From Candidatus Riflemargulisbacteria bacterium (lineage in GTDB: Bacteria > Margulisbacteria > Riflemargulisbacteria > GWF2-35-9 > DYQY01), in the NCBI GenBank assembly GCA_037141875.1, contig JBAXBT010000001.1, positions 1 to 28,654 on the forward strand: a stretch of DNA of 28,654 bases. Reading direction: 5' to 3'. The position numbers were made by a program, and so were the translations under genes. Of this stretch, positions 14,140 through 18,555 are shown in pieces; within the stretch, counting starts at the first letter, position 1; every line of letters starts with the position of its first letter. The notes beneath the pieces were generated by a model. It was not told the origin of the DNA, made no database searches, and saw nothing but the letters and a program-made list of their open reading frames with translations.

Positions 14140-14700
14140 ATGACTATTAATTTACAGGAAATTCTACACAAATATTTAAACTCAGAAGAAAGAATTAATC
14201 ACTCAATAAGAGTCGCTGACTTAGCCGTAGAATTAGCAAAAAAATATGAAGTTGAACCAACCAAAGCATATACTGCAGGGATACTGCATGACTTAGCAAA
14301 AGAAATCACCTTTGAAAAAGCAATACAAATCTCTCGCGAAAACAACTACTCTCTTTCAGAATCTGAGATTCTAAATAAAAAACTGCTTCATGCACCCATT
14401 GGTGCGCTAATTGCTCAATACGAGTTAGGAATAACAGATGCTGAAGTAATAAGTTCAATCCGCTGGCATACTACAGGGAAAGCAAACATGAGCACTTTAG
14501 AAAAAATCATATACTTAGCTGACATGGCTGAACCAGGAAGAAAATTTCCAGAAGCTATTGAAATAAAAGAATTTGCTTTTCAAGACATTAATAAAGCAAT
14601 GCACTTTGCAATAAAGCATTCACTCAAAAAACTTATAGACGCTGAACGCAATATAGATTCTAACTCAATAGACTGTTACAACTATCTTACAAAAAGCTAA
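14140..14700 (+). CDS. yqeK: YqeK-family HD hydrolase (symmetrical Ap4A hydrolase)
   Basis: HSIRVA, AGILHDLAKE, LLHAPIGA, SIRWHTTG, LEKIIYLADMAEPGR. Confidence 0.92.
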   Translation: MTINLQEILHKYLNSEERINHSIRVADLAVELAKKYEVEPTKAYTAGILHDLAKEITFEKAIQISRENNYSLSESEILNKKLLHAPIGALIAQYELGITDAEVISSIRWHTTGKANMSTLEKIIYLADMAEPGRKFPEAIEIKEFAFQDINKAMHFAIKHSLKKLIDAERNIDSNSIDCYNYLTKS

Positions 14701-15848
14701 CGACTAAGAGCCTGAGAAAAGCTCTTCATTGCTTCAGACAAGGTGTCTCCTATCATTTTACCTACTGCTGTATAAGTAGCTATCATGTCTTTCATAGTTT
14801 GTAATTTCTGTTGAAGTTGAAACAATGCACCAGGATCAGTATAAGAAGTTAAATTATTAGCAAAATCTAACATACTCCTATATGTAGAATCTATTGAATC
14901 ACCTATATCATGACGAACCTGCGAAAGAGAAGATGTATTTGGGGTAGTGCCTGCAGTATAAAGACTGTTCACATTATTTCCATCTTCCATAGACCATGCA
15001 TTTCCTACTGAACCATCTCCACTAGTAACTTCCTGAGAGCTAAAAGTAAAAGCAAAATCAGACAACTCTGCAGTACCCTGAGTTAAATTTGTTGCATCAT
15101 AAGTCGTAATCTGGCCGCTTCCTCCAACCAATCCAACGACTACGTGTCCCTGGGTTGAAGCATCTCCACTAGTAACACAAACTTGCACCTTACTCTCATC
15201 AACTCCACAAGCTATAGCTAAGTTTGCAACTAAAATAGCCATATCTTCACAATCCCCTGAACCTGAAGCAAGCGTATTAGAAGCAGAACTCCACCCTTCT
15301 CCTGGCACATCAGCTTCATACCTAACATTTGAGTTCACATACTTAGTTATAGCTGATAGCTTTTCGGCATCAGTCATTGTGTCAGTAATAATTCCTTGAG
15401 CCATCAACTGACTTGCAAGGTCTACAACTGAAGCATTTTGTGGTTGGATAAAAGAAGTAATATCAACATTATTTGTGCCATCAAAAGCAGTTGCTTTATT
15501 AATATTAGCATTTGCTTGAATAGTTAAGGACAGTTCAGCTAAATAGGACATTATCTTTTGCTGATCCTCAAGACTCATATCATCAGTAATAACAAAATCT
15601 GATCTCAGTGTGTCAAAAAGTGCTTGAACTGCAGGATCGTTGGATTGAAAAATATCTGGAATACCCGTATATTTCTGGCCATTAATTTCTATTTTAAAGA
15701 ATTGATAATCACCTTGTTTAGAAGAACCTGCATAACTGGACTCCATCTCAACTGATTGTTGAACCAAACCATCTTCTTGTAAAATTGTTTCAGGAAGTCT
15801 CTGATTAACACCTCCTTGTGACTCAATCCCAACATTATTAATAACCAT
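14697..15848 (-). CDS. Transglutaminase-like (Cys-His-Asp) protein with uncharacterised helical N- and C-terminal extensions; probably secreted
   Basis: KLSAITKYVNSNVRY, TLASGSGDCEDMAILVANL (C200), GHVVV (H235), YDAT (D251); acidic, S/T/N/G-rich; SD GGGGGA. Core assignment is solid, extensions are not. Confidence 0.8.
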   Translation of the reverse strand: MVINNVGIESQGGVNQRLPETILQEDGLVQQSVEMESSYAGSSKQGDYQFFKIEINGQKYTGIPDIFQSNDPAVQALFDTLRSDFVITDDMSLEDQQKIMSYLAELSLTIQANANINKATAFDGTNNVDITSFIQPQNASVVDLASQLMAQGIITDTMTDAEKLSAITKYVNSNVRYEADVPGEGWSSASNTLASGSGDCEDMAILVANLAIACGVDESKVQVCVTSGDASTQGHVVVGLVGGSGQITTYDATNLTQGTAELSDFAFTFSSQEVTSGDGSVGNAWSMEDGNNVNSLYTAGTTPNTSSLSQVRHDIGDSIDSTYRSMLDFANNLTSYTDPGALFQLQQKLQTMKDMIATYTAVGKMIGDTLSEAMKSFSQALSR

Positions 15849-15873
15849 GTTAAATCCCCCCTATCTCTATTTA

Positions 15874-16269
15874 TTAAATATTCTGGTCATAAGAAAACGC
15901 ATCATTAGCTTGACTAGCGGTTTCTTTTAATTGTTTTTCCAGTTCATCCCAAATCATATCTTCCAAAAACTTATTACACAACTCTTCTTGAGTAATACCA
16001 TTTGTGCCTGAAGATGTCGCGCCATACGTTGACATATTCGCAATTTCTAAATTCTCCGTTCCCTGCATATCTCCATGATATACACTTATTTTAACGTCTC
16101 CCTCTGTAGCATCTAAAAGCTGACCAACAGTAGTCTCATTGCCCTCATACATCAAACTCATAGATAGTATTTCATTTTGATCGATTACGCCATCAGCTAC
16201 TAAAGCAGAACTGTTCCTTTGCTCCGATAGGTTTATAAAAACATTTCCAGAAACATAATTTGACTCCAT
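15874..16269 (-). CDS. Hypothetical acidic 131-aa protein, probably co-transcribed with the transglutaminase-like gene
   Basis: SD AAGGAG, 25-bp gap to next gene, similar composition; C-terminal amphipathic helix FLEDMIWDELEKQLKE. Confidence 0.75.
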   Translation of the reverse strand: MESNYVSGNVFINLSEQRNSSALVADGVIDQNEILSMSLMYEGNETTVGQLLDATEGDVKISVYHGDMQGTENLEIANMSTYGATSSGTNGITQEELCNKFLEDMIWDELEKQLKETASQANDAFSYDQNI

Positions 16270-16398
16270 GTTCTACTCCTTTATAAACTTTTCTACTTAC
16301 ATTGTTAATATCGCCACGAATAGAGAAATAAATGTATCGAAAATTATTAATGAATATTTTATTGTGTTTTGGGCGTATTAACTATTGGGGGAATATCT

Positions 16399-17442
16399 AT
16401 GGATATTGGAAATATCAATAATAATCTAAATATATCTTATGACCAATCCCTGCAAACAGGTAATGATCTGACGAGTAAACTAAACCTCCCAAGCCAACAA
16501 AACAATAAAATAAAACACGATAATCTTCAAAGTCAATTTAAAGAAGTAAGCAAAAAAGAAGAAGCGCAAGAAACACAAAAAACCATTAGTGAAGTCAGCA
16601 TACGAAACGAGAATCAAGCGGTACAAACTAAAAACACTCAAGCAGATATTATGAAAAATGTTCAACAATTAATTCAAAAACCTGAAACACAAACCATAAC
16701 CGCATTAAAAGCAAACATAGCCGAACTCTTACAAGATACTCAACTAAACAAATTAAAACAACAAAATAAAGATCAACAAAGTAACCTTCAAAATAAGCTT
16801 CTAGGAGAAGAAAAAGGTTCTTCTTTACGAAACTTAACTTTATTCTCAACTATGGCATTATTTAAAGGCTGGTTTAAAAAAGTACAAAGCAAGCCTGGCT
16901 CTGAAGATGGCGTAGAGGAAACTGAAGAAACAGAAGATTCCATCCTCTCTGAGAACGAAACTGGACAAACGTCTAATCCTCAAAAAGCCAATCAAATCAA
17001 AAACAGTTCTCTAGCAAAACAACAAAAGCTCTTCAGCCTAAACATGCAAGCATCTATACGTTATCTGAAAAACCTAAAAACTTTCAACCAAAAATATTCT
17101 CCTGAAATGCTTATCTACGATGAAGAAACAGGCTATGTTGATGCGAAAGAAACATTAGAATGTCTTGGGTGGGATGAAATAGAACAATTTAAAACTAAAT
17201 TAAACAATGAACTAAATTTAAATAAACTCAAAGAAATACACAATAACAATAAAATATTGGATGCAGCCGGAACTTCTGGAATAAACGTATACAAAGCTAA
17301 CCATCCACTACACAAGAACAAAAGAGTGACTCTCGCTGTTGAGTCTCTTACAGGAGAAATAATAATGATAGACCAGCTACAGGATTTAGAAAAATTAGAG
17401 CTTCAAGGTAAAATTTATAAAATATATAATGTAGCGTCATAG
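16399..17442 (+). CDS. Hypothetical protein: long Q/N/K/E-rich low-complexity N-terminus plus ~110-aa globular C-terminus
   Basis: Long ORF; start placed at ATG 16399 (MDIGNINNNLNIS) after GGGGGA SD. Confidence 0.75.
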   Translation: MDIGNINNNLNISYDQSLQTGNDLTSKLNLPSQQNNKIKHDNLQSQFKEVSKKEEAQETQKTISEVSIRNENQAVQTKNTQADIMKNVQQLIQKPETQTITALKANIAELLQDTQLNKLKQQNKDQQSNLQNKLLGEEKGSSLRNLTLFSTMALFKGWFKKVQSKPGSEDGVEETEETEDSILSENETGQTSNPQKANQIKNSSLAKQQKLFSLNMQASIRYLKNLKTFNQKYSPEMLIYDEETGYVDAKETLECLGWDEIEQFKTKLNNELNLNKLKEIHNNNKILDAAGTSGINVYKANHPLHKNKRVTLAVESLTGEIIMIDQLQDLEKLELQGKIYKIYNVAS

Positions 17443-17451
17443 GGGTAAAAA

Positions 17452-18555
17452 ATGGCTATAGAAAATAATGCAATTAATCAATCACAAATAAACGCCAAAG
17501 TTGGTGAAGATGTTGATTTAAAACTAAACACAAAAACTCTTAGGAATATCAAAGTAACTCAAGAATATAATGAAAAAGAAGCTGAGGATTCCGTCAATGT
17601 TTCTAAACAACCCAAACCAAATCTGCCAACCCAAAGTCCTGAACAACAAATAATGAAAGAAAAGCTACTAATGATGAAACTAGAATCAGAAGTAGATAAA
17701 AACATGAATACTGAAGAATTCATGTCGGATAAAGAATATCAAATGATATCTAGCAAAATACTCAATAATGACCTTTCTTTATTTAACAAACTTGATAAAA
17801 ATAAAAAAGTAGAGTTCCTTATTAAAACCTACAAAGATATAAGTAGCCACTCAGAAAAAGTTCTAAACAATATTCTCCCCTATGTAGATGCACTTACAAT
17901 AAAAACCTCATTTAAATTCTATGGGCCAGAAAATATTTCTAATGCTAAAAAGATAGCACTACTTAATAGACTAGCTCCTGATTCTAAGCCACAAGCCGAT
18001 GAAGCCATCATTGCACTACTTTTAACCTCAGATGGAAATGTAGTTGCTGGATGTTCGCTAAATACTCTTATGGCTTTAAGAAACAAAGAATATTTAGGAA
18101 CTAAGTTCTACGAACAACTTTCACAACAAAGTAGTGGCAAATTAACTAAAGCACAACATAAACAATTAGCATTACTCTCTGCCAAAATTACAACAATATG
18201 TTACGCCTATTATATTGAAACAACTTTTGAAGCGGTAACTGCATCAATTAAAAACAAAACAGCGATGACTGAAAAAGATCTAAATATCAAAGGCATTAAA
18301 GATGAAACCAAAGCAAAACTTCTAGCACAATTAAAAGCAGAAAACTTAATAGATAAAGACAACAAAGGAATAGGAACTCTTGATCCTGAAAAGCTAAAAG
18401 CATCAATTAAAAATATAGTTGGTGATACACTCAAAATGAAAGAAGAATTAGAACAAAAGCAAAAAATAGCCCAAATTCAACAAAACATTGAAGATATCAT
18501 AGGTGAGACAATGAAATTAAAGGCTAATTTTGAAAAAACTAAGGCTACTAATTAA
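17452..18555 (+). CDS. Hypothetical predicted all-helical protein with disordered N-terminus and C-terminal 27-aa repeat
   Basis: 367-aa ORF 9 bp after previous gene with GGGG SD; no recognised family. Confidence 0.75.
   Translation: MAIENNAINQSQINAKVGEDVDLKLNTKTLRNIKVTQEYNEKEAEDSVNVSKQPKPNLPTQSPEQQIMKEKLLMMKLESEVDKNMNTEEFMSDKEYQMISSKILNNDLSLFNKLDKNKKVEFLIKTYKDISSHSEKVLNNILPYVDALTIKTSFKFYGPENISNAKKIALLNRLAPDSKPQADEAIIALLLTSDGNVVAGCSLNTLMALRNKEYLGTKFYEQLSQQSSGKLTKAQHKQLALLSAKITTICYAYYIETTFEAVTASIKNKTAMTEKDLNIKGIKDETKAKLLAQLKAENLIDKDNKGIGTLDPEKLKASIKNIVGDTLKMKEELEQKQKIAQIQQNIEDIIGETMKLKANFEKTKATN

Follow-up and report, generated by a model that had tools for sequence, protein, structure and literature searches.

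We analysed a block of four genes, ORF1 to ORF4 (ORF, open reading frame), in a 28,654-nucleotide stretch of DNA from Candidatus Riflemargulisbacteria (contig JBAXBT010000001.1, the whole stretch being called the window), which is contig 1 of a 1.6-Mb metagenome-assembled genome (MAG) that is about 78% complete. Three results are new and solid: ORF1 ends in a predicted helical hairpin that defines a small domain family, ORF2 and ORF1 form a recombining cassette, and the class to which these genomes belong carries dual flagellar-type export systems. The best available explanation for the four-gene module is that its proteins are exported by a flagellar-type type III apparatus, to which we give a probability of roughly 0.4. 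The Margulisbacteria are an uncultivated sister lineage of the Cyanobacteria. Some of them live inside animal cells, as Ca. Ruthmannia does in Trichoplax (PMC6784892).

A conserved four-gene module beside flhA

The block consists of two divergent gene pairs separated by a shared promoter region:

14697..15848, minus strand: ORF1, 383 aa, isoelectric point (pI) 4.06
15874..16269, minus strand: ORF2, 131 aa, pI 4.05, located upstream of its partner ORF1
16270..16398, no strand: divergent promoter region, from an alignment of six loci
16399..17442, plus strand: ORF3, 347 aa from an ATG, or 357 aa from an upstream TTG
17452..18555, plus strand: ORF4, 367 aa, pI 8.75
14650..16290, no strand: divergent-allele block comprising ORF1 and ORF2, from sliding nucleotide identity

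ORF1 overlaps a yqeK-like HD gene by 4 bp (14697-14700) and ORF4 overlaps a dgt-like gene by 8 bp (18548-18555). Beyond these, the block is flanked by flhA-flhF-flhG-fliA on one side, with flhA about 1 kb away, and by cheW-recN-NAD kinase on the other, with cheW at about 1.1 kb. No integrase, insertion sequence (IS), tRNA gene or meaningful flanking repeat was found around the four genes, and their GC content is normal. Signal peptides and transmembrane helices are absent from all four proteins (maximum 19-residue hydropathy at most 1.6). The positions, strands and lengths of the four genes, both overlaps, the distances to flhA and cheW and the lack of mobility genes, signal peptides and membrane helices agree with a first-pass annotation made from the sequence. 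Its label of an orphan island does not hold, however: ORF1 has a Transglut_core domain above the Pfam cut-off, and a block of normal GC content occupies the same position in every relative examined across two families.

The relatives that carry ORF1 bear the label Ca. Marinamargulisbacteria. Full-length homologues of ORF1 are few, only nine among 5.8 billion proteins, all with at least 63% identity. On every long contig examined, the four-gene block was found in the same place and in the same orientation. ORF3 and ORF4 are always adjacent, and they are present in two families (f1 and f3) of one order and nowhere else among 26 relatives. In both families the block is syntenic between dgt and yqeK-RRM-flhA-flhF-flhG-fliA; in f3 the layout reads dgt, then ORF4-ORF3 divergent from a partner-hairpin gene, then yqeK-RRM and flhA. 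In several genomes, all four genes have intact reading frames that are under purifying selection. Since the block is shared at the same place in f1 and f3, it is an ancestral, order-specific accessory module beside flhA-flhF-flhG-fliA and not an island; recent horizontal transfer is ruled out by the synteny, the normal composition and the lack of mobility genes or repeats. The module comprises a conserved ORF3-ORF4 pair that is divergent from a replaceable ORF2-ORF1 cassette.

Allelic replacement of the ORF2-ORF1 cassette

Compared with the closest relatives (loci L011 and L013), the genes flanking the block are 92-100% identical, and ORF3 (96%) and ORF4 (94%) fall in the same range, whereas identity drops to 73% in ORF1 and 48% in ORF2. 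Synonymous divergence (dS) is 1.13 for ORF1 and 1.75 for ORF2, versus 0.04-0.58 in the flanking genes. Nucleotide identity declines from approximately 0.9 to 0.4-0.8 exactly over positions 14650-16290. This pattern is what recombination leaves when it brings in an old, divergent allele; rapid protein evolution by itself does not explain it. The ratio of nonsynonymous to synonymous divergence (dN/dS) of the two genes is 0.17-0.22, which gives no sign of positive selection by this crude measure, and deep allelic divergence with a ratio below 1 fits a surface-exposed or conflict-related product.

Of the four genes, ORF2 varies most. It is missing from one relative (L014) that keeps ORF1, and in f3 its position is taken by unrelated genes encoding 259-287 aa, or by nothing.

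ORF1 carries a LapG-type protease core

The protein encoded by ORF1 begins with a disordered N-terminus (residues ~1-65) and continues with a small domain, a LapG/BTLCP-like core, a linker rich in serine, threonine and asparagine, and a C-terminal helical hairpin:

14979..15461, minus strand: LapG/BTLCP-type transglutaminase-fold core, ORF1 residues ~130-290
15249-15251, minus strand: catalytic Cys200
15144-15146, minus strand: catalytic His235
15096-15098, minus strand: catalytic Asp251
14700..14948, minus strand: C-terminal helical hairpin, ORF1 residues 301-383

The core scores 39 bits with Pfam Transglut_core, for which the cut-off is 23. LapG is its closest counterpart by both sequence profile (4fgo, E 5e-5, in a search of the ORF1 profile against sequences of the PDB) and fold (4fgq_A, E 1.4e-5, probability 1.00 and a template modelling (TM) score of 0.55 by target, in a Foldseek search with the AlphaFold2 (AF2) model of ORF1). 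Confidence in this model is restricted to the core; residues 1-66 have a predicted local distance difference test (pLDDT) value below 50, and the last ~75 residues form a helix-turn-helix. Among the distant Foldseek neighbours are papain-like toxin/immunity and contact-dependent inhibition (CDI) toxin entries with non-significant E-values.

ORF1 and Legionella pneumophila LapG have the transglutaminase fold in common, a GDCED motif surrounds the nucleophile in both, and the spacing of the catalytic triad is nearly the same (35/16 in C200-H235-D251 of ORF1, 35/17 in C137-H172-D189 of LapG, PMC12018115). Cys200, His235 and Asp251 are invariant in 10 ORF1 orthologues. Judged by these similarities, ORF1 is a predicted LapG-type cysteine protease that has an intact Cys-His-Asp triad and lacks a Sec signal. 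In contrast to LapG, which is periplasmic, it has no Sec signal peptide and carries an additional N-terminal region of ~130 residues as well as the C-terminal hairpin, and its score of 22.1 bits is far below the 320 required by the LapG equivalog NF045674. With Peptidase_C93 it reaches 26.1 bits against a cut-off of 27. A search of five genomes of the family for LapD_MoxY_N, a domain of the LapD receptor with which LapG works, found nothing, which is a weak negative because the search control was also silent.

Proteases of the LapG type characterised so far bind calcium and act outside the cytoplasm (PMC4359373). LapG-fold proteases are also known among type III effectors, a precedent for the export of such an enzyme; one of them is RipE1/HopX, whose closest PDB structure is LapG and whose first 76 residues are unfolded (PMC12018115). 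As in the HopX/AvrPphE/RipE1 effectors, the LapG-like Cys-His-Asp domain of ORF1 follows a long unfolded N-terminus (~65 residues with pLDDT below 50). However, those effectors are delivered by injectisomes of plant pathogens, while only flagellar-type systems occur in this lineage; they have no C-terminal hairpin, and no sequence relationship between them and ORF1 was seen, although no search aimed at one was made.

Across the phylum, the LapG-like domain of ORF1 is also found embedded in giant ORFs (2,300-7,000 aa). We observed giant ORFs without a signal peptide (more than 2,100 aa, those of relatives reaching ~7,000 aa) at G000:C4:1-6498 (L069), L076:1-7031, L078:1-6440 and G000:C78. The one on G000:C4 has no Pfam match; the others hold one or two LapG-like domains close to that of ORF1.

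A C-terminal hairpin domain family

When relatives were searched with an ORF1 profile, two separable modules were recovered, the LapG-like domain and the C-terminal hairpin. The hairpin recurs at the extreme C-terminus of otherwise different proteins, with four loci in each f1 genome:

Locus A: ORF1 (this window)
Locus B: a transglutaminase-plus-hairpin paralogue of 588-983 aa, between genes encoding 1,200 aa and 212 aa
Locus C: a GH8 gene, a gene of ~230 aa, a hairpin protein and a giant ORF
Locus D: a hairpin protein of 306 aa, then a gene encoding 435 aa

In the AF2 model the hairpin of ORF1 is formed by helices at residues 308-331 and 339-382. The core motif of the family is [DSN]-P-G-x-L-[FY]-x-L-Q-Q-x-L-Q-x-x-K-D...A-V-G...F. 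The hairpin alignment (A9) has nine positions that do not vary among the four paralogue groups. An exhaustive profile search among 1.84 billion representatives identified 56 clusters of 83-1,059 aa in which the module is almost always terminal. Pfam finds a transglutaminase domain in 10 of 54 hairpin clusters and no domain in the rest. The gene at the position of ORF1 in f3 sometimes encodes a hairpin without the protease domain. Stand-alone members of 83-105 aa exist as well; small members belong to locus C, and no stand-alone hairpin gene was found adjoining export genes. The hairpin defines a small, previously undescribed C-terminal domain family.

One 83-aa stand-alone member (L092:10001-10252, GCA_015231615.1) lies in a prophage-like element together with an integrase, a CI-type repressor, an excisionase-like helix-turn-helix protein and an M15 peptidase. 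Next to locus B, the product of a gene at L073:13131-14120 (G003:C3) is 329 aa long and has a hydrophobic N-terminal segment, a marginal FliG_C match of 24.0 bits (cut-off 23.3) and an MgtE_N match. This gene is grouped with a receiver-like 117-aa gene and a 780-aa gene and is convergent with the hairpin paralogue.

Comparison of the hairpin with injectisome needle proteins

Like the injectisome needle protein SctF (YscF, MxiH, EscF, EprI) and the rod protein SctI (MxiI), the hairpin consists of a helix, a proline-containing turn and a helix that ends at the C-terminus. When the hairpin alignment was compared by hhalign with a needle profile built from YscF, MxiH, EprI and EscF, the score was 24.1 (P 5.8e-4) over 44 co-linear columns that extend from the turn to the C-terminal phenylalanine. 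As a control, needle SctF aligned with MxiI at a probability of 27% (P 6.8e-4, score 23.7). Shuffling the columns of the hairpin alignment 300 times gave a score of 10.0 +/- 2.0 with a maximum of 20.2, so that none of the 300 shuffles reached 24.1 (~7 standard deviations), and the reversed alignment scored 13.5. Since shuffled and reversed alignments score far lower, the resemblance between hairpin and needle appears to be order-dependent. It seems as strong as that between SctF and SctI, yet it lies in the twilight zone.

There are also clear differences. The turn is P-G in the hairpin rather than P-x-x-P, and the invariant K54, D55 and G64 of the hairpin family are not needle residues. Unlike needle proteins, the hairpin is usually the C-terminal module of a larger protein (383 aa in ORF1) and was never seen in an injectisome cluster. 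A bolder proposal would be that the hairpin is a true relative of SctF/SctI working outside the injectisome, that enzyme-bearing and other subunits dock into or polymerise on a structure built by one of the two flagellar-type systems by means of it, and that the second, sigma-factor-linked system is a secretion device and not a motility organelle. We consider this decidedly improbable. If correct, it would place a needle-like module in a sister lineage of the Cyanobacteria, one that might be intermediate between flagellar export and delivery of the injectisome type.

Two flagellar-type export systems

FlhA, FlhB and FliP are each present in two copies in every genome of the class searched, and in one copy in the other Margulisbacteria searched. 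The two FlhA paralogues share ~40% identity. Contamination of the MAG as the source of the second FlhA is ruled out by the two copies of FHIPEP, FlhB and FliP throughout the class genomes searched. From G000:C56:2160-4259 (L003) and the G002 loci L054, L055, L056 and L058 we read two gene sets:

Set 1: fliK, flgD, flgE, motAB, fliL, fliN, fliOPQR, flhB
Set 2: two FliN-like genes, fliOPQR, flhB, an FlgE/F/G-like gene

The flhA of set 2 adjoins an F-type ATPase operon, a 128-aa gene and a gene for a 303-aa sigma-70-family factor. Classification of the second system as an injectisome is unsupported, its genes being FliN-like, FliO/P/Q/R, FlhB and FlgE/F/G-like.

Other secretion routes were sought as well. 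Searches of three 99%-complete relatives returned neither the sheath protein VipB of type VI secretion systems (T6SS) nor VirB4 of type IV secretion systems (T4SS). The best match to the HlyD-type membrane fusion protein (MFP) model TIGR01843 was 30.8 bits against a cut-off of 208.65, and that to the HlyB-type ATP-binding cassette (ABC) transporter model TIGR01846 was 402 bits against 725.55, with only 111 bits in G002, which has all four hairpin loci. TolC-like genes are present within resistance-nodulation-division (RND) efflux operons. The single secretin found has no type III context. With no marker of T4SS, T6SS or type I secretion found, the flagellar-type system is the only recognisable Sec-less route if the proteins leave the cytoplasm.

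In G002:C3 an ORF of 1,339 aa (L056:15942-19961) stands right after flhB of set 1, where flhA would normally be expected. From a reading of its N-terminal sequence we take it to resemble Cas12a/Cpf1, a putative assignment. Genes resembling cas1 and cas2 follow it in L057.

Proposed export through a flagellar-type system

We propose that the four proteins would be exported in a Sec-independent manner through one of the two flagellar-type type III systems, by means of disordered, flagellin-like N-termini. The conserved hairpin may be a docking site for a chaperone or for the export gate, or else an element of a needle-like assembly. C-terminal helices of flagellin and of hook-associated proteins are known to dock to a chaperone or to the export gate. 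Outside the cell or at its surface, the exported ORF1 would work as a protease subject to diversifying or frequency-dependent selection. ORF2 would be a partner private to it, serving as chaperone or inhibitor, and ORF3 and ORF4 would be conserved co-exported or accessory components.

The first residues of the block proteins are compositionally similar to the N-termini of flagellin and FlgL of the same genome. Enrichment of serine, threonine, asparagine and glutamine at the N-terminus places ORF3 in the top 0.5% and ORF2 in the top 5% of the predicted proteome; ORF1 and ORF4 are no higher than the top ~18%. The N/S/Q-rich N-termini attributed to all four proteins in the first-pass annotation thus exist, but to an uneven degree. 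Disordered, signal-less, flagellin-like N-termini are permissive for type III export and not specific to it.

As grounds for rejecting its own reading, that annotation had named homologues that are unlinked from one another and occur in genomes lacking an export gate. Instead, the homologues are linked to each other and to flhA across two families, and every carrier genome has FHIPEP (type III) export gates, two in number. Its suggestion of a module served by a type III apparatus is consequently retained in part: linkage, co-occurrence with the gate, disordered N-termini and the needle-like hairpin speak for it, whereas the block is no island, ORF1 is no orphan and an injectisome is lacking.

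Secretion of non-flagellar proteins by the flagellar apparatus has precedents in the Cia, Fed and FlaC proteins of Campylobacter and in YplA of Yersinia, and the flagellinolysins are enzymatic flagellins. These cases illustrate signal-peptide-less, lineage-specific export and the display of enzymes on filaments. However, none has detectable sequence homology to the block proteins.

A number of points weigh against export. We infer the secretion of each of the four proteins, and type III signals are not usually described as a conserved module at the extreme C-terminus. Hairpin loci B, C and D are not beside export genes. ORF3 and ORF4 are not found in other flagellated Margulisbacteria and so are not core flagellar parts. 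No injectisome-specific part or context was seen, both systems being flagellar in type. In the divergent promoter region there is no TAAA-N15-GCCGATAA site and hence no clean sigma-28 promoter, nor is any motif common to this region and the flagellin promoter. No SctW, tip or chaperone fold was recognised in ORF4. The neighbours of ORF2, ORF3 and ORF4 in a protein language model (clusters of SctW, YopR, SipD and Cj0814, a family named 'flagellar-dependent secreted protein') all score at most 0.91 and could not be confirmed. The needle resemblance is itself uncertain. Pfam T3SS_needle_F (PF09392) is the best named match in five of eight hairpin members, but at 21.6 bits it is under the cut-off of 29.4 and nearly equalled by the generic helical family Phasin_2 (19.7 bits); the true distant homologue MxiI scores 20.1 bits with the same needle model. 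A search of the hairpin profile against PDB sequences returned no needle protein, and an hhalign probability of only 29% keeps the hairpin-needle match in the twilight zone.

The locus is of interest for a LapG-fold protease that does without the customary Sec route and whose variation is like that of surface or conflict proteins, and for a set of candidate non-flagellar cargo proteins of a flagellar-type gate in a class with two such systems. If export is correct, the known range of flagellum-mediated secretion would be wider, and the old question of how needle-type and flagellar secretion are related would become more open to testing. Otherwise, the hairpin family would still mark an undescribed intracellular assembly.

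Alternative explanations

The proteins might never leave the cell. The hairpin would then be a docking or oligomerisation domain that attaches a variety of enzymes and partners to one structure inside the cell, such as the giant proteins encoded beside some hairpin genes. ORF1 would function in the cytoplasm as a transglutaminase-like protease or deamidase, and synteny with flhA would be functionally meaningless. The lack of signal peptides in ORF1 to ORF4 is as expected for such a module, as is the presence of the unrelated housekeeping genes yqeK, the RRM gene and dgt in the neighbourhood. The position of loci B, C and D away from export genes, with locus C pairing a hairpin gene with a signal-less giant ORF, points the same way, and ORF4 resembles a helical-repeat protein, a frequent shape of intracellular scaffolds. 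However, the characterised LapG-type proteases are calcium-binding and extracytoplasmic (PMC4359373), deep allelic replacement of ORF1 and ORF2 would be unusual for cytoplasmic housekeeping, and linkage to flhA persists across two families. The acidic, Cys-poor composition of the block proteins, rich in serine, threonine, asparagine and glycine, together with the disordered flagellin-like N-termini, also suits exported proteins better. We regard an intracellular role as possible, although on balance rather unlikely.

The variability of the cassette suggests a polymorphic effector-immunity pair, in which ORF1 would be a protease toxin directed at competitors or a host, ORF2 its inhibitor and the hairpin a recognition domain for delivery, much as XVIPCD domains mark T4SS effectors of Xanthomonas. 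If the delivering machine is of flagellar type, this proposal overlaps with the export that we prefer. ORF1 and ORF2 are hypervariable and are exchanged together, the limits of the replaced segment coinciding exactly with the two genes. ORF2 is small, acidic and private to its allele, lacks paralogues and in some relatives is lost or replaced. Variable cargo combined with a conserved terminal module, in several paralogues per genome, would be in keeping with this, as would the toxin/immunity and CDI toxin entries among the distant structural neighbours of ORF1 were their E-values significant. Yet the putative immunity gene is upstream of the toxin and belongs to no recognisable immunity family, some relatives have ORF1 without ORF2 (L014), the dN/dS values of 0.17-0.22 reveal no positive selection by a crude measure, and no machinery of T4SS, T6SS, type VII-like (T7SS-like) or CDI systems was found. 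An effector-immunity pair is, in our view, distinctly unlikely.

Type I secretion, with the hairpin as an uncleaved C-terminal signal such as those of repeats-in-toxin (RTX) proteins and LapA-like adhesins, would account for the constant location of the module at the extreme C-terminus and for the acidity of the proteins. TolC-like genes exist, one paralogue has a weak RTX-repeat match (19.5 bits versus a cut-off of 23), and the biology of LapG is tied to adhesins secreted by type I systems (PMC4359373). However, complete paralogues have no RTX repeats, no HlyD-type MFP or HlyB-type ABC transporter reaches its cut-off, and the TolC-like genes sit in RND operons, which makes type I secretion very improbable.

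Finally, a recently acquired island or a gene-calling artefact, to which the lack of family annotation for three of the four genes and the wedging of the block between housekeeping genes with overlapping ends might point, is refuted by the synteny and dN/dS results: the genes are under purifying selection at the same position in two families, with normal GC content and no integrase, IS, tRNA gene or repeat.

Other features of the locus

For ORF2, ORF3 and ORF4 we found no Pfam or NCBIfam match, no paralogues and no relation to the partner genes at the other hairpin loci, and profiles of ORF3 and ORF4 match no PDB sequence. DUF8329 and DUF3879 were further leads from the protein language model, of which DUF3879 gave no match. 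The N-terminal half of ORF3 is of low complexity and rich in glutamine, asparagine and lysine, and its C-terminal ~140 residues form a conserved domain. In the AF2 model of ORF4 (pLDDT 78, predicted TM score 0.69) residues 1-60 are disordered (pLDDT below 50) and are followed by a confident all-alpha domain, for which Foldseek (PDB and AFDB clusters) and VIA-align wide gave only helical-repeat matches at noise level. Between flhA and yqeK is a gene for a 78-aa RRM_1 RNA-binding protein (13852-14088) that is kept in all relatives.

The divergent promoter region, in which no canonical sigma-70 site could be assigned, contains the following conserved blocks:

16306-16315: TATCGCCA (GGCGATATTA on the minus strand)
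16332-16346: ATGTATCGAAAATTA
16368-16377: TTTGGGCGTA

The conserved blocks of the six-locus alignment include GGCGATAT on the strand of ORF2. Within positions 11000-21000, only two contigs of the metatranscriptome of the same sample were found, both 100% identical and inside the protease domain of ORF1 (15018-15286). They are compatible with transcription, and are not proof of it.

At G000:C140:1-4436 (L005, L006) the flagellin gene precedes a 252-aa gene, csrA (on ~230 bp that lack annotation), fliW, flgL and flgK. This gene order suggests control of flagellin by FliW and CsrA; the region upstream of flagellin shows no canonical sigma-28 site.

A 20-nucleotide inverted repeat with 85% complementarity pairs positions 16355-16374, in the conserved block upstream of ORF3, with positions 16493-16512, in ORF3 codons ~32-38. 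The repeat brackets the start codon of ORF3 and could form an mRNA structure that affects translation of this gene.

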